Counted from the stretch's first letter, positions 29,555 to 63,197 are shown. The stretch: DNA of 64,000 bases from Bacilli bacterium (GCA_017940265.1 JAGAYY010000025.1:256711-320710), one strand, 5' to 3'. Notes: generated from the letters alone by a model not told the origin. Program-made: numbers and translations.

Positions 29555-30043
29555 ATGATAAAAGAATTATTATTGTTAATTTGGATTTTTATTATTGATT
29601 ATCCAAGGAAACATAGACTCTTAGATATTCACCCAGAAACTAAGTATTTTCCTATCGGAAAAACTAAAGAGAGAATGTGGGCAGGTTATGTAATTCATAG
29701 AGGAGAGTTTGAGCAGTGGTATGATAATAGAGTTAGGTGGCTTCATTTAAACATACATCTCGCCCAAGCCAGAACACACCATGTTACTTGGATTGGTTGG
29801 TACTTAGATTATTTCTTTGAAACATTGATAGGAGCACTTTACCTATCATCCTGGAAAGGTGGCTCTCTAACAAACCGATATGAAGTCGAAGCATTATCTA
29901 ATGAGGATGACATGTACTATCTCTCTAACTATAATTCAGAGAGTATCAAGAGATATAGAATTCCACTATCCCAGAGAAAAGAATTATGGGAATCAGTTGG
30001 AAAAGATAAAACCAAACTAAAAGAATTAATTAAGTCAATATGA
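29555..30043 (+). CDS. hypothetical protein (HExxH-less paralog of 34781-35272)
   Basis: ..W.GWYLDYFFETL..RYEVEAL..DDMYY aligns with ..WIKYYWGYLIEWL..KYEVEAY..DDTY. Confidence 0.7.
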   Translation: MIKELLLLIWIFIIDYPRKHRLLDIHPETKYFPIGKTKERMWAGYVIHRGEFEQWYDNRVRWLHLNIHLAQARTHHVTWIGWYLDYFFETLIGALYLSSWKGGSLTNRYEVEALSNEDDMYYLSNYNSESIKRYRIPLSQRKELWESVGKDKTKLKELIKSI

Positions 30044-30504
30044 TATTAATAAGAACATTCTCGAAAACTTGGGAATCTCTTAAGACTCCTGAGGAACGCT
30101 CCAAGAAAGCTAAAGAACTTCTTGAGGCTAGAAAGAAAATCAACACCAGAAAAGAAAACCTTAAGACTAAATACGCCGAAGATTTAGAGAAAGCGGGTCT
30201 TGGTGAATTGAAAGGCAAAGATGGTAAACGAATTAATACCAGAGGCGTTGATGAAAAATTTAAATCTGATATGGCTGATCTGAAGAGATATCAAGAATCT
30301 ATTCAGGATACCACCAAACGCAAACCTTCCTTCAAACCTAAAACCACCCCTAAAATAAACCCTGAGACTCTCAAAAAAGTAGGTAAGGGAGCAGGAGTTG
30401 TTGCCGGAGTAGTGGGAGCTGGTCTGGCTGGAAAAGCTGTTTATAAGAAAGTAAAAAATAAGAAGAGAGAAAATGAAGTTCGTGGGAGGTTTAATACAAA
30501 ATGA
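30040..30504 (+). CDS. leader-bearing basic protein with Gly/Ala-rich hydrophobic segment
   Basis: N-terminus MILIRTFS; GKGAGVVAGVVGAGLAGKAVY. Confidence 0.7.
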   Translation: MILIRTFSKTWESLKTPEERSKKAKELLEARKKINTRKENLKTKYAEDLEKAGLGELKGKDGKRINTRGVDEKFKSDMADLKRYQESIQDTTKRKPSFKPKTTPKINPETLKKVGKGAGVVAGVVGAGLAGKAVYKKVKNKKRENEVRGRFNTK

Positions 30505-30884
30505 GTATCTTAGTTAAAAATATAATCCGTGGGTCTAAATGTCCAGAGGAGAGATCCTATCAGGCTATATCTATCGGCTTAGACACTAAACCAGACTCTT
30601 ACCTAATCCTGGCGGAGGACGGATATTACCCTAAGACCTTCAACCTGCATTTTCATGGGATACACCTTCTCTCAGAATATGAAGTGGACTCTGTATTAGA
30701 TGCTCTAGTTGCATATCTTCAACCAGGTACTTACTTAGCTAGAGCAGGAGAATCAATCCCAGAGGAGCATGGATGGTGGATGAAACTAACCTATAAGCTT
30801 GAGGAAACAACAGCTATCCGGGTTCTTCATTCTAGATACAACCACTTAGAAAAAACATATTGGAATATACTTAAGAAACAATGA
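30501..30884 (+). CDS. hypothetical protein
   Basis: 127-aa ORF, ATGA-coupled to both neighbours. Confidence 0.65.
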   Translation: MSILVKNIIRGSKCPEERSYQAISIGLDTKPDSYLILAEDGYYPKTFNLHFHGIHLLSEYEVDSVLDALVAYLQPGTYLARAGESIPEEHGWWMKLTYKLEETTAIRVLHSRYNHLEKTYWNILKKQ

Positions 30885-31615
30885 TTACGCAAGTTCCATA
30901 CACCAAAGAAAACGTTGAGAGATATAAATCTTCGGATAATCTTCTCCGACATGCTAGAACTAAAGGATGTGATGGGATAATTCTGGTGGATGGAACTAAA
31001 CTCGTCGGCTATGTGGGTTGGGAAAAGAACTGGATTATTTCTCTCGAAGTTTCTAGTGATTATCGCTCCAAGGGTTTCGGCGGTAAATTACTCGACAAAG
31101 CTATTAAGAAAGGTTGCAACGGTCTAACTGTCGATTTTGAGAATACCGTTGCTATTTCATTATATAAGTCGAGAGGATTTATAACCGCCGGATGGATTGG
31201 AGCGGATAGGATAAATATGGTTAAGGTGGATTCATTTTTCCTGGTTTCTGCTACACCAAAGTTAAAAACGGCAGAACCTAAGGTAAAAGTGTATAAAACA
31301 ATCGAAGACGCAATAACCGGAAGATACCTAGACCAGAACCTAACCGGAAAGACATTAACCGTTTATTTTCCAAGAACAAAACTAAATCCGGAATCTCTCC
31401 TTAAACCTTCCCTCACTGACTGTCCATATGGTTTAGTGGTTGATGAATATTGGTACCTCAGAGATATGGATGTGATAGAAATCAGTACCATCCGAATCGA
31501 CCAGGAGATAGGAACCATCTCATATCACACTGGCCCTAGATCATCCCTCAAGCGTATAAAAAGATGGAGATGGCACGAAGAATTAAAGGGATGGGAGAAA
31601 ACTAAATTATTATGA
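30881..31615 (+). CDS. GNAT-family N-acetyltransferase with C-terminal extension
   Basis: ..ISLEVSSDYRSKGFGGKLLDKAI..ISLYKSRGF (GNAT motif A). Confidence 0.7.
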   Translation: MITQVPYTKENVERYKSSDNLLRHARTKGCDGIILVDGTKLVGYVGWEKNWIISLEVSSDYRSKGFGGKLLDKAIKKGCNGLTVDFENTVAISLYKSRGFITAGWIGADRINMVKVDSFFLVSATPKLKTAEPKVKVYKTIEDAITGRYLDQNLTGKTLTVYFPRTKLNPESLLKPSLTDCPYGLVVDEYWYLRDMDVIEISTIRIDQEIGTISYHTGPRSSLKRIKRWRWHEELKGWEKTKLL

Positions 31616-31684
31616 GAATTAAACGTAAACATATTCCACCTACTCTAGATGATGTGATAATTAGGGTAATCAAGAAACGCCGCC

Positions 31685-32176: not shown

Positions 32177-33883
32177 ATGAAGAAAATAATACTATTAATC
32201 TTAACTACTCTTCTTCTCATTGGCTGTATCAAAGGTCCTGAATATAATGAGTCCGAGGTAGTTAAGGGAAATATAGAAAATATATTTGGGAATACTTTTG
32301 ATCCTGAACATGATTGGAGCAGCATAGTCTCTGGAGAAATTACGGTAACTCCACTTTCAGGATCAACAGAAATCCAGATATTAGCTTATACAGAAGATGG
32401 GACTCTTAAGATATTAACTAAATCAGAAGGAAATTCAGAAACAAAACTTAAGTATGATGCTCCTAATACAATGATAGCTCTTTTTGTAGCTTGTATCTCT
32501 GAAGGTGGTGGTTATTATATAAAAGAAATAAAACCTACAGATAAGATAGTTTCTTTTCTTATGCCATTATCAACAAGAGCTATAACTCGTAGTAGTATGG
32601 ATGGGAGTAAAAGACTAACTATAATTGGAAGTGAAATATCCTATGAAACTCAGCGTGGATATCCTGGGTTTGAGTCTGAGATATTATATCAGTTTAATTC
32701 AGTCCCTTATACTGTTTCTAATTATGATCTTTCCACCTTAGTAATCCTGAGGTCTATTATATTTACTTATCTTCCAAATGGTAGAAAATATAATAATCTA
32801 CCTCAAATAAAAGAAAGTGGTTATTATAATGAAAACTGTTATGCTATCACAACCGGAAAAGAACCTATCATAGTTTCACCTATTTATAAGAATGATGGTG
32901 GATATCATGAGGTAGAAACTTGTGAACTATATTACTATTATTTCAAGGATCCAGAAACTGATATTAAATCCCTTCCTAAGTATAGACTAATTAAACTTAA
33001 CGAATGTATTAAAGGTGATGATGTCCTAGAAAAGCATTGTTCATATAAACTTGTCTATTGGAAGAAAGATGGAACTGGCACTTATGATTTCCCTCCTGGA
33101 TATAAGATTGGGTTTATGTTAAGGAGTAATTATAAGAATGACGTTAAGAAAGGTGAACTCTATTTTGATGGACGTCTAAATACTGAAATCAATAAACATG
33201 GCCATTTTGCTTCCTCTAAGTTAGGTCCAGTAGATCCCAGAATGTGTTGGTTAAGTATAAATCATATGATGCTAATGTGTTGTGAAGGAGGAACGGATTC
33301 AGATTTCAACGACGTAATTCTAGAGGTCTCAGGTGGCGTAGAGCCAATTGAAATTCCTATCACACCTGAATACAATTCTTATACTTTTCTTTTCGAGGAT
33401 CAACTTTTAGGTGACTATGACATGAATGATGTTGTACTTAAGGCAGAAAGATTAAGTGACACTAAAATTAAATATTCACTTTTGGCTTGCGGAGCCTGTG
33501 ATGAACTATATCTTAGAAACTTAGGAGGTAAGGTATTAAATGAAGGTACCGAAATTCATAGGATCTTAGGCTCGGAGGGATTTATTAATACTGTTTCTAA
33601 GAGCATAGAACCTATTACAGAAATTATAACAGTACCTAAGACGTTTAGTTTTAATAATTTGGACGAACAGGTTTATATATATAATAAAACAACCAACCGT
33701 GAAATCAGGATGTCCCAAAAAGGGCAAGATCCTCACGGCATAATGATCCCCACAGATTTCAAATGGCCTAAGGAGAAAATATGTATTAAAGATGCCTACC
33801 TCGGATTTGGATCTTGGGGACATAATAAAATCGATAGCATCGGATGGTACTTAAGTCCGGTGGAAAATAATGTAATAAAATGA
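32177..33883 (+). CDS. surface lipoprotein with LruC/DUF4842-type C-terminal domain
   Basis: Signal plus lipobox LLLIGC. FEDQLLGDYDMNDVVLK and DSDFNDVILEV match the D-x-D-[FYM]-N-D-[VL]-V signature of LruC-domain proteins. Confidence 0.8.
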   Translation: MKKIILLILTTLLLIGCIKGPEYNESEVVKGNIENIFGNTFDPEHDWSSIVSGEITVTPLSGSTEIQILAYTEDGTLKILTKSEGNSETKLKYDAPNTMIALFVACISEGGGYYIKEIKPTDKIVSFLMPLSTRAITRSSMDGSKRLTIIGSEISYETQRGYPGFESEILYQFNSVPYTVSNYDLSTLVILRSIIFTYLPNGRKYNNLPQIKESGYYNENCYAITTGKEPIIVSPIYKNDGGYHEVETCELYYYYFKDPETDIKSLPKYRLIKLNECIKGDDVLEKHCSYKLVYWKKDGTGTYDFPPGYKIGFMLRSNYKNDVKKGELYFDGRLNTEINKHGHFASSKLGPVDPRMCWLSINHMMLMCCEGGTDSDFNDVILEVSGGVEPIEIPITPEYNSYTFLFEDQLLGDYDMNDVVLKAERLSDTKIKYSLLACGACDELYLRNLGGKVLNEGTEIHRILGSEGFINTVSKSIEPITEIITVPKTFSFNNLDEQVYIYNKTTNREIRMSQKGQDPHGIMIPTDFKWPKEKICIKDAYLGFGSWGHNKIDSIGWYLSPVENNVIK

Positions 33884-34230
33884 AAATTATACGACTTAAA
33901 CAATTCTCTAAGAAAGAGGATGCTGCTAAAACTGCTGCTGTTGCTGGGTCTGTAGTTGGGCTTGGTGGTGCAGCTACTTCTCTCGGTGCTAAGGTTGCCG
34001 AACAGAAGACACAAAAAGATATTGCCGATGCTCTTAAGAAAATCACAGGCAATGAAACCGGTATTAAAGGAAAGAAAGCCCTCTTAGACAAGGCTTCCGA
34101 GCTCAGCAAGAAAAAGGGCCTATTAGAGAAGATAGGTAAAAAGGCTGGCAAAATTGGTAAAGTAGGTCTTGGTGTATCTGTTGCAGGTGGAGCTACCTAT
34201 AAGGCTCTTAAGAAAAACGACAAGAAATGA
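33880..34230 (+). CDS. leader-bearing Gly/Ala-rich protein
   Basis: MKIIRLKQFS; AAVAGSVVGLGGAATSLGA; VGLGVSVAGGA. Confidence 0.7.
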   Translation: MKIIRLKQFSKKEDAAKTAAVAGSVVGLGGAATSLGAKVAEQKTQKDIADALKKITGNETGIKGKKALLDKASELSKKKGLLEKIGKKAGKIGKVGLGVSVAGGATYKALKKNDKK

Positions 34231-34781
34231 AGAAAACCATTTTATCTATATTAGCATTTGTTTTGATCTTAGGTGGTATTATACTATATTGTGTAGTCAA
34301 CAGTCCTAAGCAGCAGAAACTTGTGTTAGAAAATACGATATCGTTAGATCGTGAGAGTATGTATTTAATAGATAGTACATATTTCTGGTATGAATCACAG
34401 ATCGAACTTAAAGATATGATGAGTGATTCTCTATCTACCGATACTATTATATCTATTAGGAATATATTTCAGGATACAATTCCTAAGGTCTATATCTACA
34501 TACATACTTTTGGTGTAGATAGTGTTAGATTAAGTGTACGAGATGATTTCGTTGTTGGGGATTCTGATATGAGTAGTGATTCAATTAAAGTAACGTTCGA
34601 TAAGGCTTTCCAGTTAATGAAAAACTCAGGTCTCTATATTCCCAATAGTAGATATTGTACCCTTAGAAAGGAAGTAGGCTCTAAAGAAGCTAATCCACAA
34701 TACATCTTTGGAAACGATAAAGTTCAGATCTATGTTGATGCTGTGACAGGTAACGTCTCCGATACAAATCCCGCTTATTAA
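34227..34781 (+). CDS. membrane-anchored protein
   Basis: N-terminal TM ILSILAFVLILGGIILYCVV. Confidence 0.7.
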   Translation: MKKTILSILAFVLILGGIILYCVVNSPKQQKLVLENTISLDRESMYLIDSTYFWYESQIELKDMMSDSLSTDTIISIRNIFQDTIPKVYIYIHTFGVDSVRLSVRDDFVVGDSDMSSDSIKVTFDKAFQLMKNSGLYIPNSRYCTLRKEVGSKEANPQYIFGNDKVQIYVDAVTGNVSDTNPAY

Positions 34782-35272
34782 TGAGGTTCTTTAAAGAAAT
34801 CTGGACATTTATTCAGCTATTCTTTACTGGAATGGATAAGAGTAAGACTGAATTAGAGCCCTGGGGAGTTAAGTATATACTTTCTGGGAAATACAAATAT
34901 ATGTGTTGGTGTGGTAGAGTATTATTCCACCTAGAGAAACCAGAAGAAGGTATCTTGGTAGGTGAGGATAAAAATCATGAGACTCTTCACCTAATACAAG
35001 CTCATGATTCCGGTTCTTGGATTAAGTATTACTGGGGTTACCTCATTGAATGGCTAAAAGGTGGTGGTCCGTTCTCTAAAAAGTCTTATTATGTCGGAAA
35101 ATATGAGGTAGAGGCATATGCTAAGGAAGGAGATGACACCTATATCTCAAGGAGACCAGCCGGAAACGTAGATAAATTCATTCTTAAAGATAAAACCCAA
35201 GAATGGAAGAACGGTCGGAAGAGTTCTTATCTCTTCAAACTCTACATTAAAGAAAAATTTAAAGATATATGA
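34781..35272 (+). CDS. putative HExxH zinc-metallopeptidase-like protein
   Basis: DKNHETLHLIQAHD (HExxH), plus downstream YEVEAYA glutamate block. Confidence 0.6.
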   Translation: MRFFKEIWTFIQLFFTGMDKSKTELEPWGVKYILSGKYKYMCWCGRVLFHLEKPEEGILVGEDKNHETLHLIQAHDSGSWIKYYWGYLIEWLKGGGPFSKKSYYVGKYEVEAYAKEGDDTYISRRPAGNVDKFILKDKTQEWKNGRKSSYLFKLYIKEKFKDI

Positions 35273-35583
35273 TTATCAAACGCTTTTCCCGTTCTAATGA
35301 AGATCTTGAGAAGTTAAGTGATTATGAACTTACCAAGATAATTAAGAAAGGAGAAAATAGACATAAAACAACTCGGGATTTAGGCACCGCATCTGGACTA
35401 GTAGGGGCAGCTATAGCGGGAAACCTAGCTAAGCGAGATCTAATCAATGCGGCTGGTGCTGGTTTTATGGTTGGTGCGATTCCGGGTCTAGTAGCTGGTA
35501 TTAAAAGTGGTAAAAAGAAAAAGGAAGAGGCTGAAACTGCTACTAAAATTCTAAGAAAAAGGAGAAATAAAAATGATAATTAA
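35269..35583 (+). CDS. leader-bearing Gly/Ala-rich protein
   Basis: MIIKRFS; SGLVGAAIAGNLA..AAGAGFMVGAIPGLVAGI. Confidence 0.7.
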   Translation: MIIKRFSRSNEDLEKLSDYELTKIIKKGENRHKTTRDLGTASGLVGAAIAGNLAKRDLINAAGAGFMVGAIPGLVAGIKSGKKKKEEAETATKILRKRRNKNDN

Positions 35584-35989
35584 ACGTCAGAAAACATTTG
35601 GAGTTAAATCAAAAGCTCTCGGTTTATTAGCCCCAGGTTCTTATCAAGCCAAAGAAGCTGCTAAGTATGGTTACGATGAGGACGAATATAAGAAAAAAAG
35701 AGCTGGATATGCACTTAAGGGACTTTTTGCACCAGGAACAAGTACCTATATGAAAAAGAAAGCTCAAGAAATGCATGAGGAAGGTAAATCTCAAAAAGAA
35801 ATTCGTAACTTTCTTGAAAATAAAGGAAAGCATAAGAGTTCTGGACGTGTGGCTGCTGGAGTTGCTGAAGCCTTAACAGGTAGTGCTGGTGGTGTTGGTC
35901 ATACAATTGCTCAAGGTGTCGGTATCTATGATAAAGTAACCGGACATAGAGTTAAATATAAGAAGAAAAATGCTAGTCCTAAGAAATAA
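35573..35989 (+). CDS. leader-bearing protein
   Basis: MIIKRQKTFG; VAAGVAEALTGSAGGVGHTIAQGVG. Confidence 0.7.
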   Translation: MIIKRQKTFGVKSKALGLLAPGSYQAKEAAKYGYDEDEYKKKRAGYALKGLFAPGTSTYMKKKAQEMHEEGKSQKEIRNFLENKGKHKSSGRVAAGVAEALTGSAGGVGHTIAQGVGIYDKVTGHRVKYKKKNASPKK

Positions 35990-36715: not shown

Positions 36716-36904
36716 ATGAAAATAAAACGTAAGAATTTCGCTGTTAAAGTAATTAGCGATGATCTAATTAAGAAACAAGTAGCGGCAGAAGTCAAGAAAA
36801 GTACAGATTGGATATTAAAAAATAAACCATCCATAAAATTCCTTCGACCTGCCACTAAGAAGAGTAGTTGGTTTAGTAAGAAGGAAGGAGAAAAAGATGA
36901 ATAA
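36716..36904 (+). CDS. leader-bearing small basic protein
   Basis: MKIKRKNFA (longest ORF starts at 36710); overlaps the terL start by 8 nt. Confidence 0.55.
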   Translation: MKIKRKNFAVKVISDDLIKKQVAAEVKKSTDWILKNKPSIKFLRPATKKSSWFSKKEGEKDE

Positions 36905-37538
36905 CCTAGATTTTATAGATCATTCCCCCAAGTTTGATCCTTTGGCAAGTGAAAGGGAAATAGATAATGCTTCCCTTGAAAAACAATACGCATCTTTAAG
37001 TGAAGAAGAAAAAAATTTAGTTTATGCTAAACTGAATGGCTATAGGTATATTCCACCAACTATACGTCAAATGTGGGAAGACACTTATTTTTTAGGTGGA
37101 GAAGCTTTTTACAATAAAGGTATTGCATTATTTGATTACTGGAAAAAAGTTCTTGAGGATGATATATTCAGTGGTCCTTTTTTTATAAAGAAGAACTATA
37201 TAGTAGCTAGTGGTGCTATAGGAATTGGCAAAAGTACGTTCGCTAGGTTATGCTGGATGGAGAATCACGCTAGAATGCTTTCAATGCGTCAGCCCTATAG
37301 TACTCTTAAGATTGTTCCAAAAACACTAAGTTATGTAATAATGCATAAATCTGAAGAAACTGCAATTGTAGAGTTTAAGAGATGGTTTTTAAGAGACGTT
37401 ATGGAATTATCTCCATTTTTTAAAAATGTCAAAAACGAAAATTTTAAATTCAAAGTAATTTGTAGCGGTCCAAGAGGTGTAGCAGGATTAGGTAGTGATA
37501 GAAATGTCGTCTATATTGGTAACAGTATAGATTATTAG
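36897..37538 (+). CDS. terL: terminase large subunit, N-terminal (ATPase) part
   Basis: Walker A VASGAIGIGKSTFA. The frame ends at TAG 37536-38, before any Walker B or nuclease domain. Confidence 0.85.
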   Translation: MNNLDFIDHSPKFDPLASEREIDNASLEKQYASLSEEEKNLVYAKLNGYRYIPPTIRQMWEDTYFLGGEAFYNKGIALFDYWKKVLEDDIFSGPFFIKKNYIVASGAIGIGKSTFARLCWMENHARMLSMRQPYSTLKIVPKTLSYVIMHKSEETAIVEFKRWFLRDVMELSPFFKNVKNENFKFKVICSGPRGVAGLGSDRNVVYIGNSIDY

Positions 37539-37755: not shown

Positions 37756-39060
37756 TTGGTTATTTTTTACCTAATAAGTGAATCTAATTTCTGGACCCCA
37801 TCTGAATTAGCTTTTGATAAGATTTCAACCGCCTTAATAAGATTTAAATCAAGATTTAACTCAGATACTCTACAAAATGTAGGACAAATTATCATTGACT
37901 CTTCTGCTAAAGGTGTACTAGATAGTACAAAGTGGTTTGTTGAGAATTCAGATCCTAAATATACCTGGTTTGATAGTCCTGCTCACTACGAAGTTAGGCC
38001 CCAAGATTATAAGGAGTCAGATGGAAAAACGTTTAAAGTATTTACCGGTAGTGGAAAATATCCGCCTCAAATATTGGCTAATGATGATAACCCTGACCCT
38101 TCTATATATGATCCCGATAAAATAATAAAAGTACCTATTCAATTATTACGCGACTATAAAAGAGCTTTAGTAAAAAGTTTACAGGATTATTCAGGTATTA
38201 GTACTGGAAGTACTGATTCTTTCTTCGGTGGAAATATTAAACACATTGTTGAATCTTCTACTATAATAAATAGAATTCCTGAAATAATAACCGTAGATTT
38301 TTATGATAAAACAGACAGGCTCTTAGATCATATATGGCCAATGTTATCTTTACTTCCTTATAAAACTCCAATTTGGTTAGGACTTGACCTTAGTTATGCT
38401 AAAGGAGGAGATAAAACAGGAATAGCTATATCTACATTTGAGGGCTGGGAAATAATAAACGGCACTAAACTTCCAAAAATGGCTGTTAGATTAATTGTAG
38501 CTATCCAAAATAAAGAAGGTCAAGAAATATCATTATTCCACATAGAACAGCTAATAATGGATTTACATAAGAGATTTAATCTAACAGTAAATGCAGATGC
38601 TGCATATTCTAGACAAATCTTACAAGCTTGCGATAGGGAAGGAATTAATAATAATGGTAGAATATCAACTGATATTGTTCCATGTGAGCCAGCACTTTAT
38701 ACAAAATCTGCAATAAATGGTGGACAAGTTCAACTAGTCATACATAAAAGATTTCAGAGAGAAGCTTATGATTTATATTATACAGAAAAAGGGAAAGTAG
38801 ATCACCCTAAAAAAGCTTCTATTAGTAATGACTTTGACAATCCACCAGGTAATCCAACTCCAGAAAAAGGAAGTAAGGACTGTTGGGATGCAGTATGTCA
38901 AAGCTTATATGGTATCAAACTAAGTATTGATGCCGGAGACGAATATGGAATGAATGGCGGATATTATAAAGAACTACAGGTAATGAATAAAGTGACTGAT
39001 GACCCAAGAGAAAGATCTAGAGAAATAGTTCAATCTATGATGGAGTCAGTATTCGATTAA
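37756..39060 (+). CDS. terL: terminase large subunit, C-terminal part (rest of ATPase + RNase H-like nuclease)
   Basis: ..VIFYLISESNFW.., nuclease acidic blocks WLGLDLSYAKGGDKTGIAI, VNADAAYS, KDCWDAV. The frame is open from 37747, and the 'start' at 37756 is a TTG artefact. Confidence 0.85.
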   Translation: MVIFYLISESNFWTPSELAFDKISTALIRFKSRFNSDTLQNVGQIIIDSSAKGVLDSTKWFVENSDPKYTWFDSPAHYEVRPQDYKESDGKTFKVFTGSGKYPPQILANDDNPDPSIYDPDKIIKVPIQLLRDYKRALVKSLQDYSGISTGSTDSFFGGNIKHIVESSTIINRIPEIITVDFYDKTDRLLDHIWPMLSLLPYKTPIWLGLDLSYAKGGDKTGIAISTFEGWEIINGTKLPKMAVRLIVAIQNKEGQEISLFHIEQLIMDLHKRFNLTVNADAAYSRQILQACDREGINNNGRISTDIVPCEPALYTKSAINGGQVQLVIHKRFQREAYDLYYTEKGKVDHPKKASISNDFDNPPGNPTPEKGSKDCWDAVCQSLYGIKLSIDAGDEYGMNGGYYKELQVMNKVTDDPRERSREIVQSMMESVFD

Positions 39061-46882: not shown

Positions 46883-46883
46883 T

Positions 46884-53176: not shown

Positions 53177-53963
53177 ATTATTTTCAGACCCCACCCCAAA
53201 AGAGAGGATTAAGCTTTTCTCTAAGGATGGTAGTGGAACAAAAGTAGTAGTTTGTGCAGATTGTGGGTTTAAACAAGAGACCTCCGCCCATACTACTAAT
53301 TTGCTATGTCCTAAATGTGGTAGTACCCGGTTTAATGTTCTTAGAGCTGTTTATAGCCCTGAAGTATCACCGGAGAAAATCGAAGAACAGGAATGGCAAA
53401 AAGAATTTAATGAAACAAGTGATGAGTTAGAACTTAGATTAAAGGAATTTTCGGGGACAAGTCTTAGTGCTGCCAACTTCGAAAAGGAATTTAGCGTCAT
53501 AGGAGTTACTTCCGAAGATCTTCAAGCGAGAGGTTATGCTAATACCGCTGAAGATGGAAGTATCGAGATTCCTAGCGATGCCTTCTTAATGTCGAGACTC
53601 TTCAGTAATATCAAGATCAGCATAACTAAAACGCTTGAACTAGATCCGGAAGTAATGAATGACGCTTCTACTGGCATATCTAAACTGGAAGAGGTCAGTG
53701 ATCTAAGTCCAAAGAGTATTGCCATAATCAAGAAAGTTCATGGATTTAAAGTCCCTGAGATAGATAAAGAGTCTTGGTTGGCTGATTCTGGTATACAAGG
53801 TGATTTGAAACTCGAGTTTGGTGGTCAGAATATGGATACACCAGAATTTCAATCATTACTAGCAGAAAGATATCCTGATGCTCCGGAGGATCTCTTTGAA
53901 GTTTTAAAAACAAAAGGTATAATCCGAGACACCGGAGATAACAGATTAGAAATCATAAAATAA
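53160..53963 (+). CDS. zinc-ribbon protein with duplicated leader
   Basis: MKERIKLFSDPTPKERIKLFSK..; CADCG..CPKCG; start at ATG 53160 (longest ORF starts at 53061). Confidence 0.7.
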   Translation: MKERIKLFSDPTPKERIKLFSKDGSGTKVVVCADCGFKQETSAHTTNLLCPKCGSTRFNVLRAVYSPEVSPEKIEEQEWQKEFNETSDELELRLKEFSGTSLSAANFEKEFSVIGVTSEDLQARGYANTAEDGSIEIPSDAFLMSRLFSNIKISITKTLELDPEVMNDASTGISKLEEVSDLSPKSIAIIKKVHGFKVPEIDKESWLADSGIQGDLKLEFGGQNMDTPEFQSLLAERYPDAPEDLFEVLKTKGIIRDTGDNRLEIIK

Positions 53964-53966
53964 ATT

Positions 53967-56075
53967 ATGGCTAATACACGTTTAATGGATCGACTCTTTA
54001 GTGCTACAGAAAATAAAGAGGAAGATGTTTTGAATCAGACCGCTCAGGAAATCGAGAAGGCTAAGGAAAATGGCTCTCACGATACGGATGAGTTGGCCTA
54101 TGAAAAGGTAGACGATAATAAAGTTAAAGTTACCGATAAGGAGAATGGTGAGGTTACTATGATCGAGAATTCAGAAGATGGTTACGATATCTATAACCCT
54201 GAGGACGTCTTAGAGGATGAGCAGCCCAAACTTGAGGGATTCTTGCATCCGGAAGTGGATGATCAGGTTGTTCCTGGTGAGCAGACTAATCCTACCGAGA
54301 AAGTCGAAGATCATGAAAATGAACCTATCTCTCCAAATGTAGAAGGTGGTGGTCTCAATCCAGAGGCAGGCCAGGAGAAGAGCGTTGAGGAAACAGCAGC
54401 TGAAGGTCCACAGCCTGAGGAAGGTAAGTGCCCTGAGTGCGGTAAGGAATCTTGTGAATGCAAAAAGGAAGAGCCCAAGAAGGAAGAGGAAGAGAAGAAG
54501 TTCTCTGTATATACTTCTAATTCTGCTGTTCATCGTATCTTCAGTGATCAGGAGTTCTGTGAGCGTTTGTTCTCAGAGGTTCTTGAATCAACTGGTGATG
54601 TTGAAGATGTTACTAAGGTTGGTAACCTCAAGATTGAGAAGACTGCAGACAATGAGCTGATTGTAACTGACTGTGCAACTGGTGATGCTGCTAAGGTATC
54701 TCTCGATGCAGAAGAGCTTTCTGTGACTGAACTTGAGAAGAAGACATTCTCTGAGGAGGGTTCAGAAGGTATTAATCAGCCAGATCAATTTGAACCTGTT
54801 CATGTAGTAGGTGTTGATACTGGTAATCATCAGTTAGTTGACTCTAGTGCATATGGCGCAGAGGAGGCTCAGGAATTAGCTAACCGCCTTACAGAGGCTG
54901 GCGTAGACGGCGTTCAGGTAATTGAAGATGAGGAGGCCGCTCGTGATTACGCTATCGACCTGTTGAATAATCTCGGTGTTAATAATCCCGAGAATGTTGA
55001 AGAGCCCGAAGAGGTTACTTTCAGTGACACAGAAGGCAAGGAATATAGCGTATTTGTTACTCGCTATTTCTCTAATAACACTATCTTCATGGATCGCTTA
55101 TTCAGTGAGTCTGCTAATGGTGTTGAAACCAGTCAGGCTAAGATTGAAGATGCTCTGAAGAGTGGTGACGAGATTGAAACCGATAGTGAAATTGTTACTC
55201 CAATTAGTGCTACAGAAGCTGTAGTCGAAGACAAGGATAATGACCAATTCACGAAGGTTACTCTCGTAGATGACGAACTTAAGCTTGATCCTATTTCTAA
55301 GGATGAAGCAGACGAACTTTTAGATGACGTCGCTGTTTCAGAAAAAGAGAAGGATTTCTCTGATATCTGGACAAATGAGGCTCGCACTAAGTTCTTCTCT
55401 GAAAATGAACCTATGACTGCTTACATGGAACGTCTATTCTCTGATGAAGAGAAGGAAGAACTAATTGAGGAAGCAATCGAGAAAGGTGAACAGAATGAGA
55501 CCGATACTATTGTTATTACTCCGGTAGATGCAGAAACTGCTATTATCCAGGATAAAGGAAATGGTGAGTTTACTAAAGCTGTTCTGTCAGAGGAAGATAT
55601 TGATCTCGCTCCTATCAGTGAGGAAGAAGCTGATAAATTAACTGAGGAGAAGAAGGTCGAGGAAGAGCCTAAGAAAGAAGAGAAAGAGGAAGAAAAGGGA
55701 TTCTCCGTACTCACTAAGTGGTTCACTCAGGTTGTTCCTGCACAGGCACAGCCCGTAGTAGCTGCTCCTCAAGCTGCTCCAGTTCCCGTTGCTCCTGCAG
55801 TTGATGAGAATGGTCAGCCTGTAGTTCCTGCTAATGAAGTACCTAGCGTAGAAGCTATCGAAGACAAGGCTATCGCTGCTGTTCAGCAAATTCAGGCTGC
55901 TGCTGCTGAAGCTGAGGCTCAGATTCTTAATGCTAAGGCTGCTCCGGTGGAGAATGCAGAAGTAGATCTTCAGGAAGCTCAGTTCTCTGAGAAGAAAGAC
56001 GAAAAGACTTTCTCTGCTAATGAAAACGATTCTCTCGTTTCTTGGCTGAACGGCATTTCTAAATTTCGTCGTTAA
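53967..56075 (+). CDS. acidic scaffolding-like protein with internal repeats
   Basis: 702 aa and highly acidic, immediately upstream of the MCP. Four RLFS-initiated modules; Ala/Pro/Gln-rich C-terminal region. Confidence 0.65.
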   Translation: MANTRLMDRLFSATENKEEDVLNQTAQEIEKAKENGSHDTDELAYEKVDDNKVKVTDKENGEVTMIENSEDGYDIYNPEDVLEDEQPKLEGFLHPEVDDQVVPGEQTNPTEKVEDHENEPISPNVEGGGLNPEAGQEKSVEETAAEGPQPEEGKCPECGKESCECKKEEPKKEEEEKKFSVYTSNSAVHRIFSDQEFCERLFSEVLESTGDVEDVTKVGNLKIEKTADNELIVTDCATGDAAKVSLDAEELSVTELEKKTFSEEGSEGINQPDQFEPVHVVGVDTGNHQLVDSSAYGAEEAQELANRLTEAGVDGVQVIEDEEAARDYAIDLLNNLGVNNPENVEEPEEVTFSDTEGKEYSVFVTRYFSNNTIFMDRLFSESANGVETSQAKIEDALKSGDEIETDSEIVTPISATEAVVEDKDNDQFTKVTLVDDELKLDPISKDEADELLDDVAVSEKEKDFSDIWTNEARTKFFSENEPMTAYMERLFSDEEKEELIEEAIEKGEQNETDTIVITPVDAETAIIQDKGNGEFTKAVLSEEDIDLAPISEEEADKLTEEKKVEEEPKKEEKEEEKGFSVLTKWFTQVVPAQAQPVVAAPQAAPVPVAPAVDENGQPVVPANEVPSVEAIEDKAIAAVQQIQAAAAEAEAQILNAKAAPVENAEVDLQEAQFSEKKDEKTFSANENDSLVSWLNGISKFRR

Positions 56076-56163: not shown

Positions 56164-57624
56164 ATGAATAGCAATACATATTATTTGTCTATGATGCAGC
56201 AGCCCGCTATGATGGATGCTCTGCTTGCAAGCTCGGTTAGTGCTGAAGACGCTAATCTCCGTTCACGCGAGTATGCTAAGATGTTCTCTCGCAATGAAGA
56301 CCTGAAGAATGTATTTGGTCTTAATAACAGTGCTAATCTGATGCAGAAGACTTTCTCTGGTTATGCAGAGACTCCGCTGCTGAGCACGCAGTATTTCAAT
56401 GCTTCGGTTGCTTCTTATGTAAGCTCTTTCGCTGGCTATATGTCTATCGAGCGCGACTTTGATCAGCCTAATGGTCTGTTCTATTGGTTCGACGTTCTCG
56501 GTGTTACCGATATGCGTTCAATTATTCCTAACCTGGGTCCGGATCAGTATCAGGACATTCAGAGCATGGGTGGATTTGAACTCGAGATTACTCCTACTGC
56601 TAATGCTGACTATAGCGCACTGGTAGGTCGTAAGATTATCCCCGGTACTGTGCGTATTAAGATTAAGAATGCTACTGAGGCTTTCGAGCTGATTGATAAT
56701 GGTCAGGGTGCTTTCATGGCTGTTGCTAATAAGATCACTACTGGTACTGTTAACTATCTGAACGGTCGTATCGAGTTCACACTGGCTACTGCTCTGAGCG
56801 GTGATGCTAATACTGAGTCTATCGTTATCGTAGGTAAGGAAGACGTTACTGGTACTCCTTGCAATACCGTAGGTGCAAGCAATGCTCATACTAATGACAA
56901 GCGTTTCATTGCTAAGATGCAGCAAATTGGTCTGTCTACAGTTCCCGATATGCTGGTTGCTGAGTATAACATTGCAGCTCTCGGTGCAATGAAGAAGGCT
57001 ACTGGTGCTGATATGGCTACTTTCCTGTTCACCAAGCTGCGCGAGCTCTATACCAAGATGATTAACTACAAGCTGGTTAGCACTCTGGAAGAGGGTTATG
57101 TAGGTAACACTATGAATGACCTGGATCTGAGTGTTGCATCTGTTGGTGTATCTAGCAAGTTCCACGATTATCGTTCTCGCGTTGATGTATTCGATGCATA
57201 TCTGATCAACGTTGAGAGTGCACTGGCTACAAAGGCTGTTAAGGGTGTTAACACAACTGCTTATGTTGTTGGTAACCAGGCTGCTAACCAGTTCCAGAAG
57301 GGTGGTATGATTGGTAAGTTCGAGAAGAATACCAAGATGACCTACATCAACGACCTGCTTGGTTGGTACGACGGTGTTCCCGTGCTGCGTTCTACCGATA
57401 TCGCTGAGGCTCAAGGTGAGGGTACATTCTATGCTATCCACAAGACCGCTGATGGTCAGATGGCTCCTCTGGCTCGTGGTATCTACATGCCTTTGACAGA
57501 TACTCCTACCATTGGTAACTATAACAACCCAACTCAGATGGCTTCTGGTATCTACTACCAGGAGGGTACTAAGTACATGGCTCCTGAGCTGGTTCAGAAG
57601 GTTACCTTCAAGTACGGCATCTAA
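56164..57624 (+). CDS. major capsid protein (gp23-like position)
   Basis: 486 aa. Follows the protease and scaffold. Codon usage differs sharply from its neighbours (CTG/CGT/GGT-rich), as expected for a highly expressed gene. RSIIPNLG resembles the gp23 RRAIPNLIA block. Flanked by strong hairpins. Confidence 0.75.
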   Translation: MNSNTYYLSMMQQPAMMDALLASSVSAEDANLRSREYAKMFSRNEDLKNVFGLNNSANLMQKTFSGYAETPLLSTQYFNASVASYVSSFAGYMSIERDFDQPNGLFYWFDVLGVTDMRSIIPNLGPDQYQDIQSMGGFELEITPTANADYSALVGRKIIPGTVRIKIKNATEAFELIDNGQGAFMAVANKITTGTVNYLNGRIEFTLATALSGDANTESIVIVGKEDVTGTPCNTVGASNAHTNDKRFIAKMQQIGLSTVPDMLVAEYNIAALGAMKKATGADMATFLFTKLRELYTKMINYKLVSTLEEGYVGNTMNDLDLSVASVGVSSKFHDYRSRVDVFDAYLINVESALATKAVKGVNTTAYVVGNQAANQFQKGGMIGKFEKNTKMTYINDLLGWYDGVPVLRSTDIAEAQGEGTFYAIHKTADGQMAPLARGIYMPLTDTPTIGNYNNPTQMASGIYYQEGTKYMAPELVQKVTFKYGI

Positions 57625-57753: not shown

Positions 57754-58026
57754 ATGGCTACATACAAGCTAAAGAGAAAAACTTTTGGTATACCGGGTGC
57801 GCTTTTTGGTGCTAAAAACTTCAAGGCTATGGCTTCTGGAATGAAAGGTACAGAGGCTCTTAGTGCTGGTAAAAGAGCTCTCGAAGGCGCAAAAGGCCTG
57901 GCCAAATCAGTCGGAACGGTTGGTGCAGTAGGTGCTGTTGGGGCTGGCGCTCTTGCAAATAAAGCCGGAGCTAGTGAAGTCCTAAGTGGCGGTGAGAACA
58001 CTGCCCAAAAAATGGAATTCTCATAA
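57754..58026 (+). CDS. leader-bearing Gly/Ala-rich protein
   Basis: MATYKLKRKTFG..ALFG..; VGTVGAVGAVGAGALA. The track start at 57727 lies inside the terminator hairpin. Confidence 0.65.
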   Translation: MATYKLKRKTFGIPGALFGAKNFKAMASGMKGTEALSAGKRALEGAKGLAKSVGTVGAVGAVGAGALANKAGASEVLSGGENTAQKMEFS

Positions 58027-59507: not shown

Positions 59508-60089
59508 ATGATTATATTCAAACAAAAAACTTTCTCAGAGTATGATGCAATGAGAAGTTTAGTCGTCACTTTACAAAAATATGGTGACCGAACAAAATGG
59601 AAAACTATCGACTCTAGTGCAGTAGTTCCCGTTCTTCGTGGAAATAATGTAGTAATTGAAAGATTCGTAATATCAACTTCATTCTTACATAGAGATCGTT
59701 ATAGGATGTATTTAAAAATAGGTGCTAAAGCGAAACTCCCGGATGAAGTAAGATTACCAGAAAAAGTATATGATAAAAGACTTGGAAATGCATCTTTAAA
59801 CATAAATGTTGCTAATTTTGCTCCCGGTAGTCAACCTCAGCAAAAGAACAACTCAGTTATATTTAAGCAAAAAGAATTTAAAGGCGGTGGTGCTCCTCCT
59901 ACCGTAAGTGCTAACCTTTCTCCAAATATTGATCTTACATATCAAGTCAGAGAACTATTAGGAGAAGCAGTTAAATACGATAAGAAAGCTCGCTCACTTG
60001 TCTTAGAATTCAAATCAATTCAAGATGCAATTACAGCCTTAAATATACTACCTTTTGGTATAGACTATAATATATTCTTACTCAAATGA
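59508..60089 (+). CDS. leader-bearing protein
   Basis: MIIFKQKTFS; internal repeat of the leader VIFKQKEFKG. Confidence 0.7.
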   Translation: MIIFKQKTFSEYDAMRSLVVTLQKYGDRTKWKTIDSSAVVPVLRGNNVVIERFVISTSFLHRDRYRMYLKIGAKAKLPDEVRLPEKVYDKRLGNASLNINVANFAPGSQPQQKNNSVIFKQKEFKGGGAPPTVSANLSPNIDLTYQVRELLGEAVKYDKKARSLVLEFKSIQDAITALNILPFGIDYNIFLLK

Positions 60090-60307
60090 TAATCTTGCGT
60101 AAACAATTCTCAGGGACTAAGATCTTGAATACAAATGGTGCTCCCGGATTTATTAGGGGAAGAAAATATGATACTGACCTTGATAGACTTGGACGTATGG
60201 AGACATCACAACGAGAACTTCAGAGGACTGGGCAAATAGGGCAAGAGATTAGACAATTGGGAAAAGAATTAAATCAAGGAAGACTAGGAAAATGGCAAAA
60301 TTCGTAG
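60086..60307 (+). CDS. leader-bearing small protein
   Basis: MIILRKQFS. Confidence 0.6.
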   Translation: MIILRKQFSGTKILNTNGAPGFIRGRKYDTDLDRLGRMETSQRELQRTGQIGQEIRQLGKELNQGRLGKWQNS

Positions 60308-60564
60308 TTAAAAGAAAAACATTTGGAATTGCTGAAGCTGCACAGAATACGATCGGTACAGCCGCTGAAACTGCTGGTAATGTTGCTGATACTAAAATCG
60401 GTGGTATGGTAGGTGGACTTGCTACTGGAGGTGCTATTCAAAGTGCCTTGGGTCTTGGATTAGGTCCTTTAGGTTGGTTAGCAGGTGCAGCTCTCGGAAC
60501 AGCAGCTACTCGTGCCGCAGGTAAGGGTCTCAAATCCCTTGGTGAAAGTATTAAGACTGATTAA
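60292..60564 (+). CDS. leader-bearing glycine-zipper protein
   Basis: MAKFVVKRKTFG; GGMVGGLATGGAIQSALGLGLGPLGWLAGAALG. Confidence 0.7.
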   Translation: MAKFVVKRKTFGIAEAAQNTIGTAAETAGNVADTKIGGMVGGLATGGAIQSALGLGLGPLGWLAGAALGTAATRAAGKGLKSLGESIKTD

Positions 60565-60570: not shown

Positions 60571-61878
60571 ATGATAACATTCAAGCAGAAAAAATTTGCT
60601 ATTCCTGCAATTGCTATGGGAGCACTAAACGCTGCTGGAACTGTAGCTACCGTAGCAGGAATAAAACAGTCTGCTGATCAAGCCAAGGAAGCTGAGGAAC
60701 AAGCCGAAAAACAACGAGAAGCTATAGAAAAACAAACCAAAGCTCTCAATAAAATAGCTAAAGAAGCCAAATCTAATCCTGAGGTTGCCGATAAAGTTCA
60801 GAAAGAATTTGCTGCTACACCACTAATAAAAAATGTAGCCGGATTTGCAAAGGATGTATGGGGAACTCAGAAAGGCAACGTAAGCAAAGCTGCAAAAGCG
60901 GGCTTAGGTTTTGGTGCATTAGGTTGGGCAGGTAATAGATTAACAACATCCATAAAAGACCATGATGAGGGAAATGATGAAAAAAATCGTAGTTTCCTTA
61001 AGAAAGCCGCACTAGGTGCTGCTACCGTTGGGGGTGGTATCTTGGCTGCTAAAAAGGGAGTACTTGGAAAATCCGCTCAAGAATTCATGACTAATGGTGC
61101 AGGATCTAAAGCCTTAACCACAACCAAAGAAGCTATTAATCCAATTGTTCGAGATCCTAAAACCGGTTCTATCTCCAAAGGACAAACAGCTATGAAGGTT
61201 GGTATGAATGGTGTTTTTGTTGGGATGCCTGTTATGGGTTATCTTGGACAGAAAAAACAACAGGATGATCAAATTCAGAAAAGCTATTCGGATAGAAAAG
61301 ATTCTGGACTCCTTAAAGGATTAGCTGGTGCTGCAACATTAGCAGGAACAGTAGCCTTGGGTAGGAAAGGAATGCTAGGGGCTAAGGTTCAAAGAGGCAT
61401 TGGTAATGTCACTGCACACACTGGTGGGATTCTTAAGTCAGTTGGTGCTACTAAAACAGGTGATAAACTGGCGAAAAGTGGTGCTAATACTTTTGCTCAA
61501 GGATTCCGCGATAAGAATGGTAATGCTGTTATAGGTGCTGTCAAAAATAGTGTAGCAAATAAAAAATACAATACGGCTGCTGCTCCTAATAAAATATCAG
61601 ATGGAATATCTAAGGCGGGTAGCTTCTTAGGCTTCTATGGTAAAGGAGGTACTAAGGCCGTTCAGAATACAGCAAATACCTTGGCTAAATCAGATAATCA
61701 AATCTCTAAAAACGTAGGTGAGTTCTTACAAAAACACAAGACGACTGCTAATGTGGCTGGAAGTGTTGGAGCTCTTGCAGTAGGTGGAACAGTAATGGGA
61801 GCTGGTGAAAAACCATTCAAAGTACTAGATTCACGTGCCTACGATTATGAGAAACAACAAAATCAGGAGGTTCGATAA
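60571..61878 (+). CDS. leader-bearing large Gly/Ala/Lys-rich protein
   Basis: MITFKQKKFA; 435 aa with repeated KKGVLGKSAQ / RKGMLGAKVQ units. Confidence 0.75.
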   Translation: MITFKQKKFAIPAIAMGALNAAGTVATVAGIKQSADQAKEAEEQAEKQREAIEKQTKALNKIAKEAKSNPEVADKVQKEFAATPLIKNVAGFAKDVWGTQKGNVSKAAKAGLGFGALGWAGNRLTTSIKDHDEGNDEKNRSFLKKAALGAATVGGGILAAKKGVLGKSAQEFMTNGAGSKALTTTKEAINPIVRDPKTGSISKGQTAMKVGMNGVFVGMPVMGYLGQKKQQDDQIQKSYSDRKDSGLLKGLAGAATLAGTVALGRKGMLGAKVQRGIGNVTAHTGGILKSVGATKTGDKLAKSGANTFAQGFRDKNGNAVIGAVKNSVANKKYNTAAAPNKISDGISKAGSFLGFYGKGGTKAVQNTANTLAKSDNQISKNVGEFLQKHKTTANVAGSVGALAVGGTVMGAGEKPFKVLDSRAYDYEKQQNQEVR

Positions 61879-62312
61879 TGGCAACATACAAGTTAAAAAG
61901 AAAAGTTTTTACCAAGTATGATGAGACTGATAACTTGAAACGTATGAAAGACTCGGATATCCTTGCTGAACAAAAAAAGCAAGCTCCTGGTTACGGTTCA
62001 GTTGCAAGTCAAGCAGCTGGTGGCGCTATTGCTGGTGGTATAGCCGCAGGTGCAGCCGGAATTGCTAAAGGACTTGGAAATAAAGGTGCTAGAGTTGCTA
62101 CTGCTGGAGCTAATCTCTCCAAGTATGGAAAACTCGGAGCCATCGGTGGAGCTGCAATCCTCGGAGGTATGGCACTTAAAAATAGAAATAAACAGGCTGA
62201 GGAAAACAACTTCTATAATCGTCGTCTAGAATATGCTCAAAAACAAGCAATTAGACGCGAGAAAAAGGACTGGAAAGCCAATATGACACAGCGAGATGGG
62301 TACTCTTATTAA
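61878..62312 (+). CDS. leader-bearing glycine-zipper protein
   Basis: MATYKLKRKVFT; AAGGAIAGGIAAGAAGIA; LGAIGGAAILGGMA. Confidence 0.7.
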   Translation: MATYKLKRKVFTKYDETDNLKRMKDSDILAEQKKQAPGYGSVASQAAGGAIAGGIAAGAAGIAKGLGNKGARVATAGANLSKYGKLGAIGGAAILGGMALKNRNKQAEENNFYNRRLEYAQKQAIRREKKDWKANMTQRDGYSY

Positions 62313-62583
62313 ATTTCGACAAAAAAAGTTTGGAAAAGTAGAAAAGTTTTTGAAGACGCCTGCAGGAATTATTAGTACTACAGGTTTAGCAGTTTCTTCA
62401 GCCAATCTAACTACCAACGTAAGTAGACATCGAAACGATAAGAAATACCAAGAAAATCAGATTGAAGCTATGAATAAACTTACTTCTTCAATTAAAGGGC
62501 TGGATAAAACAGTTAAAGGAGTTGAGAAGGGAAAAGAAAATCTACACAGCTTCATAACATTTAAACCAAAACATAAGAAATGA
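62296..62583 (+). CDS. leader-bearing small protein
   Basis: MGTLIKFRQKKFG. Confidence 0.6.
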   Translation: MGTLIKFRQKKFGKVEKFLKTPAGIISTTGLAVSSANLTTNVSRHRNDKKYQENQIEAMNKLTSSIKGLDKTVKGVEKGKENLHSFITFKPKHKK

Positions 62584-63197
62584 TTCAGTTTAGACAAAAA
62601 CAATTTGGTCTAGGTGCTGATACTTTAAAATGGGCAGGCCTCGGTGGAATAGCTGGTCAAGTTGCATCTAAAATTCCTTACTTCAGAAAAAAAATAAGGG
62701 GAAAAGAAGATTGGTCAACTACTTTGGCTATCGTTGGAGGTGGTACTGTAATTGGTGCTGGTTTAGGTCTACTGGTTGGATTAACTAAGGACGCATCTCA
62801 AAAAATCAATCGAGCTACTACAGTCGATAGAAGACTTATGCAAAGTGTAATAGAAAATCTTAAGAAATCAGGACTTAAAGAAGATCAAGACTTTACCCGA
62901 GATCCAAAAATTGCTAACGACTTGAAGGTTAAAGTTTGCATAGTCATTTCTAAAGATTCAGGTAACTTACACCTCTTAGTTAATACAGTAGCAGACGCAA
63001 AATTAAAGACTGTTACTAACGGAATGGCTAAAAACATTCCAAACTCAGCTACAGTACATACAAAACTGTCAGATAAATATAACGATATATCGATATCAGC
63101 TATATCAGATTCTTCAGCTGACACAGGATTAATCACCGGAATTGCAGAATACTTCATACATAATAAGTATCCGGTCTATCTTGTTGAAGTTGGATAA
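62580..63197 (+). CDS. leader-bearing protein with glycine-zipper segment
   Basis: MIQFRQKQFG; LAIVGGGTVIGAGLGLLVGL. Confidence 0.7.
   Translation: MIQFRQKQFGLGADTLKWAGLGGIAGQVASKIPYFRKKIRGKEDWSTTLAIVGGGTVIGAGLGLLVGLTKDASQKINRATTVDRRLMQSVIENLKKSGLKEDQDFTRDPKIANDLKVKVCIVISKDSGNLHLLVNTVADAKLKTVTNGMAKNIPNSATVHTKLSDKYNDISISAISDSSADTGLITGIAEYFIHNKYPVYLVEVG

Follow-up and report, generated by a model that had tools for sequence, protein, structure and literature searches.

Tagged N-termini in the structural module

The window analysed here is a stretch of 64,000 nucleotides from Bacilli bacterium (GCA_017940265.1, JAGAYY010000025.1:256711-320710), and has a minus-strand block of about 47 genes at 2-29 kb and a plus-strand block of about 46 at 29.5-63.2 kb. 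It is a member of the 'Jug' clade of jumbo gut phages. The subject of this work is a short basic N-terminal leader ending in K-x-F-[S/G], carried by many otherwise dissimilar proteins of the plus-strand block, and its relation to a putative prohead protease encoded among them at 51944-53176, for which the end of the leader is probably the cut site. Jug phages have genomes of 360-402 kb, predicted hosts in Bacteroides/Phocaeicola and a reported share of about 1.1% of human gut metagenome reads; nearly all of their structural genes are without annotation, and their portal and protease were described as 'fragmented and/or highly divergent' (PMC12880540). A search of IMG/VR through the probable major capsid protein (MCP) retrieved at least 80 related contigs, of up to 330-400 kb.

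The head genes follow one another in the order portal candidate (47827), small genes, protease (51944), zinc-ribbon protein (53160), acidic protein (53967) and MCP (56164). The protease gene is located between the portal candidate and the scaffold/MCP genes, as is the case for prohead proteases of the gp21/assemblin fold. Neither Pfam nor PHROG was of help with the core head genes, whether portal candidate, protease, acidic protein, MCP or the several cargo proteins scanned. Searches of PDB sequences, run with the MCP, the protease, the portal candidate, an MCP profile and a distant-protease profile, returned zero matches, and tblastn against GenBank phages was equally negative for the acidic protein of 702 aa, for the protease, for distant proteases and for the partial open reading frame (ORF) at the end of the window.

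A sequence-only reading of this DNA had quoted 22 N-termini and claimed a shared basic leader for at least 20 proteins. All 22 N-termini were found in place. The core pattern, defined as [KR]-x-F-[SGAT] and scored in the first 14 residues, was present in 19 of the 46 plus-strand module proteins, in none of the 47 opposite-strand proteins and in 1 of 177 unannotated ATG ORFs. Three quoted starts do not fit it: the one at 45521 (MITFKEKTT) is without the aromatic-small pair, that at 50133 has Val in place of Phe, and that at 36389 (QQNYS) belongs to a doubtful ORF of 47 aa. The shuffling control proposed in the same reading gave, against the 19 proteins observed, a mean of 0.66 motif-bearing proteins (maximum 5) when whole proteins were shuffled and of 1.7 (maximum 8) when shuffling was limited to the first 14 residues.

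The motif occupies residues 6-13 in about 17 small, mostly basic proteins and in the portal candidate, all encoded on the plus strand. In the first part of the block (arrows mark the predicted cut) the leaders are MILIRTF↓S (30040-30504; 154 aa, pI 10.2, with a glycine-zipper-like segment), MKIIRLKQF↓S (33880-34230; 116 aa, basic and Gly/Ala-rich), MIIKRF↓S (35269-35583; 104 aa), MIIKRQKTF↓G (35573-35989; 138 aa) and MKIKRKNF↓A (36716-36904; 62 aa). Between the portal candidate and the protease they are MIVLRRSKSF↓S (49707-50036; 109 aa, 29 orthologs), MELKEKTF↓T (50044-50139; 31 aa) and MYIRRKAF↓S (50339-50650; 103 aa), the last with a second site, EEKLF20↓S. Since most relatives examined have a similar ORF of 30-41 aa, the one at 50044-50139 is probably a real gene, with a predicted product of about 23 residues after cleavage. 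The leader-like start MVIKRKKKKVS at 50133-50324 has apparent counterparts reading RFSGY or NFSGY at the same position in relatives, and is possibly a decayed or weak site.

Downstream of the MCP the tagged genes are found in a run, with MATYKLKRKTF↓G (57754-58026; 90 aa, 38% Gly+Ala), MIIFKQKTF↓SEYDAMRSL (59508-60089; 193 aa, in every relative examined), MIILRKQF↓S (60086-60307; 73 aa), MAKFVVKRKTF↓G (60292-60564; 90 aa, 40% Gly+Ala), MITFKQKKF↓A (60571-61878; 435 aa, with a body conservation of 0.28 and about 0.9 for the leader K and F), MATYKLKRKVF↓T (61878-62312; 144 aa), MGTLIKFRQKKF↓G (62296-62583; 95 aa) and MIQFRQKQF↓G (62580-63197; 205 aa). The run stops at 63197, a possible boundary with the tail module; the ORF that follows (63225-64000, starting MAQWTQTLEPYVKV) runs past the window end and has neither a leader nor a database match.

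The claim that the bodies of these proteins are unrelated held at the level of sequence, as pairwise BLAST of the leader-stripped bodies gave a best E-value of 0.065, but not at that of composition, most bodies sharing a pI of about 10 and a Gly/Ala-rich hydrophobic segment. In 15 genes the leader Met is the earliest possible start codon of the ORF. At the conserved leader positions Phe is encoded by TTT (12 times) or TTC (8 times), Ser by TCN and AGT, and Arg by AGA and CGN, and such variable use of synonymous codons indicates that the constraint acts on the peptide and not on the mRNA.

The clade-wide logo of the leader reads M-I-I-[LFI]-[RK]-[RQ]-K-x-[FY]-[SGAT], with the Phe mostly at residue 9 or 11, and a second class of the form MATYKLKRKxF[GST] occurs in the clade. 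Directly past the small residue the information content drops to 0.2-0.6 bits. The leaders end in K-x-F-[SGAT] without a conserved Glu, and therefore differ from the L/I-x-E of the T4 capsid-targeting sequence (CTS). They also differ from Sec and lipoprotein signal peptides, with polar or charged sequence directly after most of them, mostly no h-region and no lipobox Cys; true lipoprotein-like starts in the window (32177 and 34227) are of another kind.

The protease and the other core head proteins

The gene at 51944-53176 (plus strand) encodes a protein of 410 aa, assigned by fold search and alignment as a prohead protease with a helical, scaffold-like C-terminal domain. Its AF2 model (pLDDT 81) comprises a confident N-domain (residues 1-185, pLDDT above 90), a disordered linker (190-252) and a helical C-domain (255-390). 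The top Foldseek match of the model in the PDB was T4 gp21 (5jbl; E 1.5e-4, probability 1.0, TM(target) 0.55), with the herpes assemblins next, and a search of BFVD gave 71 matches at E<=1e-3, of which the named ones were mostly prohead or capsid maturation proteases. The model thus supports the gp21-like protease of the sequence-only reading, with a T4 gp21/herpes-assemblin fold for the N-domain, although the sequence family is a different one: no sequence similarity of the protease to gp21 was detected, and neither the protease nor 19 distant family members matched anything in Pfam, PHROG or PDB sequence searches. Homologs in the clustered database numbered 179 (36-65% identity in the derived alignment), none with a Pfam domain, and the protease forms a sequence family of its own, outside Pfam.

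In the alignment of homologs H49 and S135 are invariant, and in the distant-family alignments H49 and S125/126. Four candidate self-cleavage sites lie in the linker, namely EKTY-S190, VKTF205-S206, NKF225-T and KEF253-T. Invariant or nearly so in the aligned homologs are EKxFS, VKTF205-S206 and a QKxFS immediately before the C-domain; F205-S206 is invariant within a disordered stretch where pLDDT falls below 50. The N-terminus of the protease itself (MRCKVRVLKFG) was rejected as a leader, being a confident beta-strand of the fold with a Phe that is not conserved.

The protease copy of the window is uninterrupted. In Jug contigs common in the human gut, tblastn needs 1500-1690 nt to match about 375-387 residues of the protease, which suggests an insertion within the gene, consistent with its description as 'fragmented' (PMC12880540). 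The best BFVD fold match of the model was an unnamed protein of 478 aa (A0A385IRY6; 440 aligned columns). The gene immediately upstream of the capsid gene of E. coli phage IME392 (1645-3081) also encodes 478 aa and may be the same protein; if so, the protease-plus-C-domain architecture would be shared with a cultured E. coli phage without K-x-F-S leaders.

Downstream of the protease, the gene at 53160-53963 (plus strand) encodes a zinc-ribbon protein of 267 aa. Its leader is duplicated in tandem (MKERIKLF↓S DPTP KERIKLF↓S), as it is in relatives (MARLKLFSENPVRRKLFS and others), and the protein has F-[SG] at four more places. The next gene (53967-56075, plus strand), which had been labelled as the MCP, encodes a hyper-acidic protein of 702 aa (pI 4.1, 180 D+E) with many motif sites. 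Here S or T follows 17 of the 24 Phe residues, against about 6 expected, and all 10 divergent orthologs compared keep 14 of the F-S sites, although the mean conservation per column is 0.53. Three internal repeats of the leader-like FMxRLF↓S also occur. From its sequence the protein looks like a scaffold/core polyprotein, predicted to be cut into about 15 fragments of 9-168 residues. Internal domain repeats at residues of about 380-464 and 492-579 are each preceded by FMxRLFS, suggesting an origin by duplication of a unit of leader plus small acidic domain.

The probable MCP is instead encoded at 56164-57624 (plus strand; 486 aa). It is the most conserved gene product of the module (79-89% identity), and its residues 290-483, the C-terminal 40%, match the 'putative major capsid protein' of phage IME392 (tblastn E 1e-6); in IME392, with its distantly similar MCP, such leaders were not found. 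The AF2 model of the MCP was poor (pLDDT 51), owing to the shallow alignment, and the fold search was uninformative. Within the first 65 residues, a presumed N-terminal propeptide region, AKMF41↓S and QKTF64↓S are invariant and NVF51↓G is variable, so that EYAKMF↓SRN and QKTF↓SGYAETP stand as invariant blocks around a variable stretch. The predicted mature N-terminus is S65-GYAETPLL, with the neo-N-terminal peptide SGYAETPLLSTQYFNASVASYVSSFAGYMSIER.

The portal candidate (47827-49488, plus strand) is named from its position and gave no match in Pfam, PHROG or PDB sequences. The start at 47845 taken in the sequence-only reading is less likely than that at 47827, which puts K-M-F-G at residues 10-13, in agreement with the apparent counterparts in relatives, where [EQ]-K-[MIL]-F-G is conserved at these positions. 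The recurrence of the motif in the scaffold and in the MCP N-terminus was likewise seen, once both genes had been relabelled, and it extends to the protease linker. Four proteins indeed have internal motifs above background: the protease, the zinc-ribbon protein, the acidic protein and the MCP in its N-terminus. Outside these and the N-termini, plus-strand proteins have 1.4 motifs per 1000 aa, which equals the minus-strand background (1.2 per 1000 aa).

Leaders and internal sites differ upstream of the motif. With the Phe taken as P1, the leaders are hydrophobic at P8 and P6 in fractions of 0.77 and 0.87, against 0.20 and 0.40 for internal sites, and P5 is basic in 0.77 of the leaders and 0.16 of the internal sites. 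That the hydrophobic/basic part occurs in leaders only suggests a two-part tag, made of an address and a cut site.

Relatives and neighbouring genes

The logo and the scan of related genomes, both proposed in the sequence-only reading, revealed the leader in all relatives examined. Each had 8-18 leader-starting ORFs on the plus strand within 10 kb of the MCP or protease and 0-4 on the other strand, and both the number of tagged genes and their duplication vary among relatives. In the ortholog alignments, conservation of the leader K and F is about 0.9 even where that of the body is 0.28. The leader is conserved throughout the clade and is under selection at the protein level.

An exhaustive profile search with the protease family yielded 247 cluster representatives at E<=1e-3, some of them fused forms whose linkers are longer, others stand-alone protease domains (about 165 aa) or C-domain-only proteins. 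The distant fused forms have 3-6 K-x-F/Y-S sites immediately following the protease domain, and the C-domain-only proteins have K-x-F-S-[AV]-A immediately ahead of the homologous domain. Of the 25 genes around the protease in human-sample contigs of about 75-200 kb, 8 have [KR]-x-[FY]-[ST] in the first 16 residues, for example MNDTLLMTRIFSDE, MARINKFSETRAFSE and MNRLIQRIYSAME. The genomic context of the stand-alone protease lineage comes from a single 8-kb metagenome contig (GC 0.32), IMG/VR having yielded for it just Jug contigs or the end of a contig. In the 8-kb contig the neighbours of the protease are a small gene with the start MGIINQISKVFSS and a protein of 976 aa with at least 8 motif matches, mostly K-x-F-S. 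The motif thus accompanies the protease family in three lineages, Jug and two more. Among cultured GenBank phages no homolog of these proteases was detectable.

Two other genes of the module are candidates for an alternative protease. A leaderless protein of 163 aa with HETLH, an HExxH motif (34781-35272, plus strand), matches phrog_15610 'protease' (E 1e-7), and the protein of 453 aa at 45521-46882 (plus strand), whose start lacks the F-small pair, has HEVGH together with hydrophobic segments; it also resembles PF04298, a family of putative neutral zinc metallopeptidases, though weakly (E 3e-4, which misses the cutoff). The former is similar to another protein of about 160 aa, encoded at 29555-30043 and without HExxH, with which it shares the motif YEVEA..(E/K)DD..Y.

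The structural module also contains two leaderless cell-wall hydrolases (46857-47678 and 41812-42498), an N-acetylmuramidase (PF11860, E 5.6e-52) and an Amidase_3 protein. A putative split large terminase consists of a Walker-A ORF (GAIGIGKST; 36897-37538) and an ORF of 434 aa (37756-39060) about 220 nt apart and in different frames, followed by a 623-aa HNH/homing-endonuclease gene (39094-40965; phrog_559, E 2e-23). Neither terminase-like half matched Pfam or PHROGs, and a scan of the window against Rfam gave no match, hence no recognised intron at this split gene. The opposite-strand block includes genes for an M42 glutamyl aminopeptidase (E 2.5e-53), an SPFH/flotillin-like protein and an HD-domain plus AAA_33 kinase-like protein (26333-27397, 2540-4102 and 18453-19601, all on the minus strand), which are unusual auxiliary content for a phage.

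A proposed code for head maturation and loading

Taken together, these results make it probable that the K-x-F-S motif is the cut site of the phage's own prohead protease and that the leaders bear in addition an address, similarly to the T4 CTS with a new code. In this model [K/R]-x-[F/Y]-[S/G/A/T] would be the recognition and cleavage site of the serine protease at 51944-53176, and the leader would be a two-part N-terminal propeptide, with M-I-I-phi-[R/K]-[R/Q] (or MATYKLKR) upstream as the address, followed by the K-x-F↓S cut site. The address would tether each protein to the assembling core, probably through the hyper-acidic 702-aa protein, by electrostatic and hydrophobic contacts between the basic address and the acidic core. 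After closure of the shell, the protease would cut itself in the linker, chop the acidic protein into about 15 pieces and take about 64 residues off the capsid protein; the leaders would then be clipped and the mature basic proteins freed inside the head. Targeting to the prohead would follow from the hydrophobic/basic part that only leaders have and from the analogy with the T4 CTS.

A cut between the Phe and the small residue is the likelier of two positions, the other being after the small residue, which would give an MCP starting GYAETPLL. It is favoured because conservation ends at the small residue, because assemblins of the same fold, which cut (V/L/I)-x-A↓S, have the same P3-x-P1↓Ser layout, and because the new N-termini would be S, G, A or T. 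In the uncut state, sites of this kind would be spanned by peptides such as MIIFKQKTFSEYDAMR and QKTFSGYAE.

In T4, a CTS of 10 residues, as on IPI-III/Alt, lets basic internal proteins attach to the core and is cut off by gp21 at L/I-x-E, the residues for targeting and for processing being separable (PMC9026906). The system described here resembles it in having an N-terminal tag of about 10 residues common to otherwise unrelated, mostly basic small proteins; in a tag end that is repeated in scaffold, MCP and protease, where cleavage is known in T4; in the predicted protease fold; and in a cargo gene repertoire that varies among relatives. It differs in the code, which is basic-x-aromatic followed by a small residue, in the fusion of the protease to a helical C-domain without detectable sequence similarity to gp21, in the Gly/Ala-rich hydrophobic segments of the cargo, and in the number of tagged genes, about 17 in 34 kb compared to a handful in T4. 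In SPN3US (gp245) and phiKZ (gp175), one self-cleaving protease strips N-terminal propeptides from many head proteins (PMC10052503, PMC9026906), so that jumbo heads and abundant internal or ejection proteins losing a propeptide are common to both systems. Their motif, however, is S/A/G-x-E, cut after Glu, and their propeptides are long and without a common short leader, whereas the leader here is short and stereotyped.

Herpesvirus assemblins, next after gp21 in the fold search, share the fold. They are fused to a scaffold-like C-terminal region and release themselves by cleavage. The present protease differs from them in the basic P3 and aromatic P1 of its sites, in the lack of sequence similarity and in belonging to a bacterial virus. 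In lambda (C/Nu3) and P2 (gpO), an N-terminal protease and a C-terminal scaffold-like helical domain are encoded in one gene, the lambda C protease being ClpP-like. The one-gene architecture is the same, with parts that are separate genes in distant relatives of the present family, but the protease families are others and no leader is common to many cargo proteins there. In the Prp system of Staphylococcus phage 80alpha, too, structural proteins without homology to one another share a short N-terminal peptide that is conserved and is cut between Phe and Ala; the enzyme there is a host cysteine protease with ribosomal protein L27 as the main substrate, and the motif, in an L27-like context, occurs on few proteins of a phage that is not a jumbo phage (PMC5744158). 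Here, by contrast, a phage-encoded serine-protease fold co-varies with the motif.

Among the alternatives, that of a cleavable propeptide without an address is unlikely, yet the least so. The leader would then serve to keep membrane-active or DNA-binding basic proteins inert, with their bodies determining incorporation into the head; many bodies are indeed basic with glycine-zipper-like hydrophobic segments, potentially harmful in the cytoplasm, and in phage 80alpha it is assembly or folding, and not targeting, that depends on an analogous N-terminal peptide (PMC5744158). On the other hand, the leaders hold a conserved hydrophobic/basic part that is dispensable at the cleavage sites inside the scaffold, and since the bodies are unrelated in sequence, a common incorporation signal within them is improbable. 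Somewhat less credible is an uncleaved K-x-F-[S/G] acting as a docking motif, by which many proteins and the scaffold would attach to one partner, for instance the protease C-domain, the portal or the inside of the shell. Invariant residues in disordered or variable contexts are what a short linear motif would show, and the cargo peptides of encapsulin-type systems are an uncleaved precedent; nevertheless, the sites coincide with the places where prohead proteases are known to cut (the MCP N-terminal region, along the scaffold, the protease/C-domain junction and the ends of N-terminal extensions), and conservation stops abruptly past the small residue, as expected of a scissile bond.

Cleavage by another enzyme, either of the two HExxH proteins (34781-35272 or 45521-46882) or a Prp-like host protease, is less credible still. 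In its favour are the phrog_15610 match of the first, the HEVGH and weak PF04298 match of the second, and the fact that Prp cuts capsid and scaffold proteins of 80alpha between Phe and Ala (PMC5744158). The motif varies together with the gp21-fold family, that family's own linker included, over three lineages, and this argues against the other enzymes. In addition, a Pfam scan of 36 plus-strand module proteins and 10 opposite-strand proteins revealed no Prp domain, the leader consensus M-I-I-phi-R-x-K-x-F-S differs from the L27-type sequence, and the predicted hosts are Bacteroides/Phocaeicola (PMC12880540), whereas the L27 extension and Prp are described for Firmicutes. Very improbable, finally, is an artefact of chance, 5'-end paralogy, an mRNA translation signal or a Sec/lipoprotein signal peptide, even though the leaders use AT-rich codons, duplicates of some leader genes occur in relatives and a few G-type leaders precede hydrophobic stretches. 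Chance is excluded by the shuffles and controls (19/46 against 0/47), and no starts of this kind occur in the phage's opposite-strand genes; paralogy was rejected for want of significant pairwise similarity between leader-stripped bodies, and a signal peptide on the polar sequence after most leaders and the missing h-region and lipobox Cys. A translation signal is ruled out by the varying synonymous codons, and the conserved internal sites likewise show that the motif cannot be one.

Several points weigh against the model proposed here. Cleavage and the location of the leader proteins in virions are predictions from sequence, and the catalytic role of H49 and S135 is likewise a reading of their invariance and order in the chain. 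The identities of MCP and portal are weakly supported, and the two HExxH proteins lie in the same module as candidates for an alternative processing enzyme. The logo was built on sequences selected by regular expression, and the information at P3, P1 and P1' is partly built in. Hydrophobic stretches after some G-type leaders resemble signal anchors, and none of the cargo proteins searched in Pfam and PHROG had a recognisable function or family.

The principle of a prohead protease acting with N-terminal targeting propeptides is already known. New are the code, the stereotyped two-part leader, the number of tagged genes, the sequence family of the protease and its occurrence in an abundant jumbo clade of the human gut. 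As the sequence-only reading had supposed, no described phage cleavage code of this form was found: full-text searches of the literature library consulted gave no description of a K-x-F-[S/G] code or leader, and the Jug phage paper does not use the terms 'leader' and 'N-terminal' (PMC12880540). The broader proposition, of a widespread gp21/assemblin-fold protease family of uncultivated jumbo phages, the abundant Jug phages of the human gut among them, with a novel basic-x-aromatic↓small specificity, coupled to a two-part tag that loads many small basic proteins of glycine-zipper type (at least 17 genes in 34 kb), is evenly poised.

If this proposition is true, sequence alone, read through the tag, would suffice to predict which proteins of these phages are internal or injected, and the tagged proteins could be candidates for effectors that form pores, condense DNA or counter host defence; a further use might be as a portable loading signal, for example in the engineering of Bacteroides phages. 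The code would annotate about 20 orphan genes per genome as head-internal and would yield exact predictions of mature N-termini for metaproteomics. It would also establish which substrates are cut by a new branch of the herpesvirus/phage maturation protease lineage, and would carry the CTS principle, so far known from T4-like phages, to an unrelated clade with a different chemical code.

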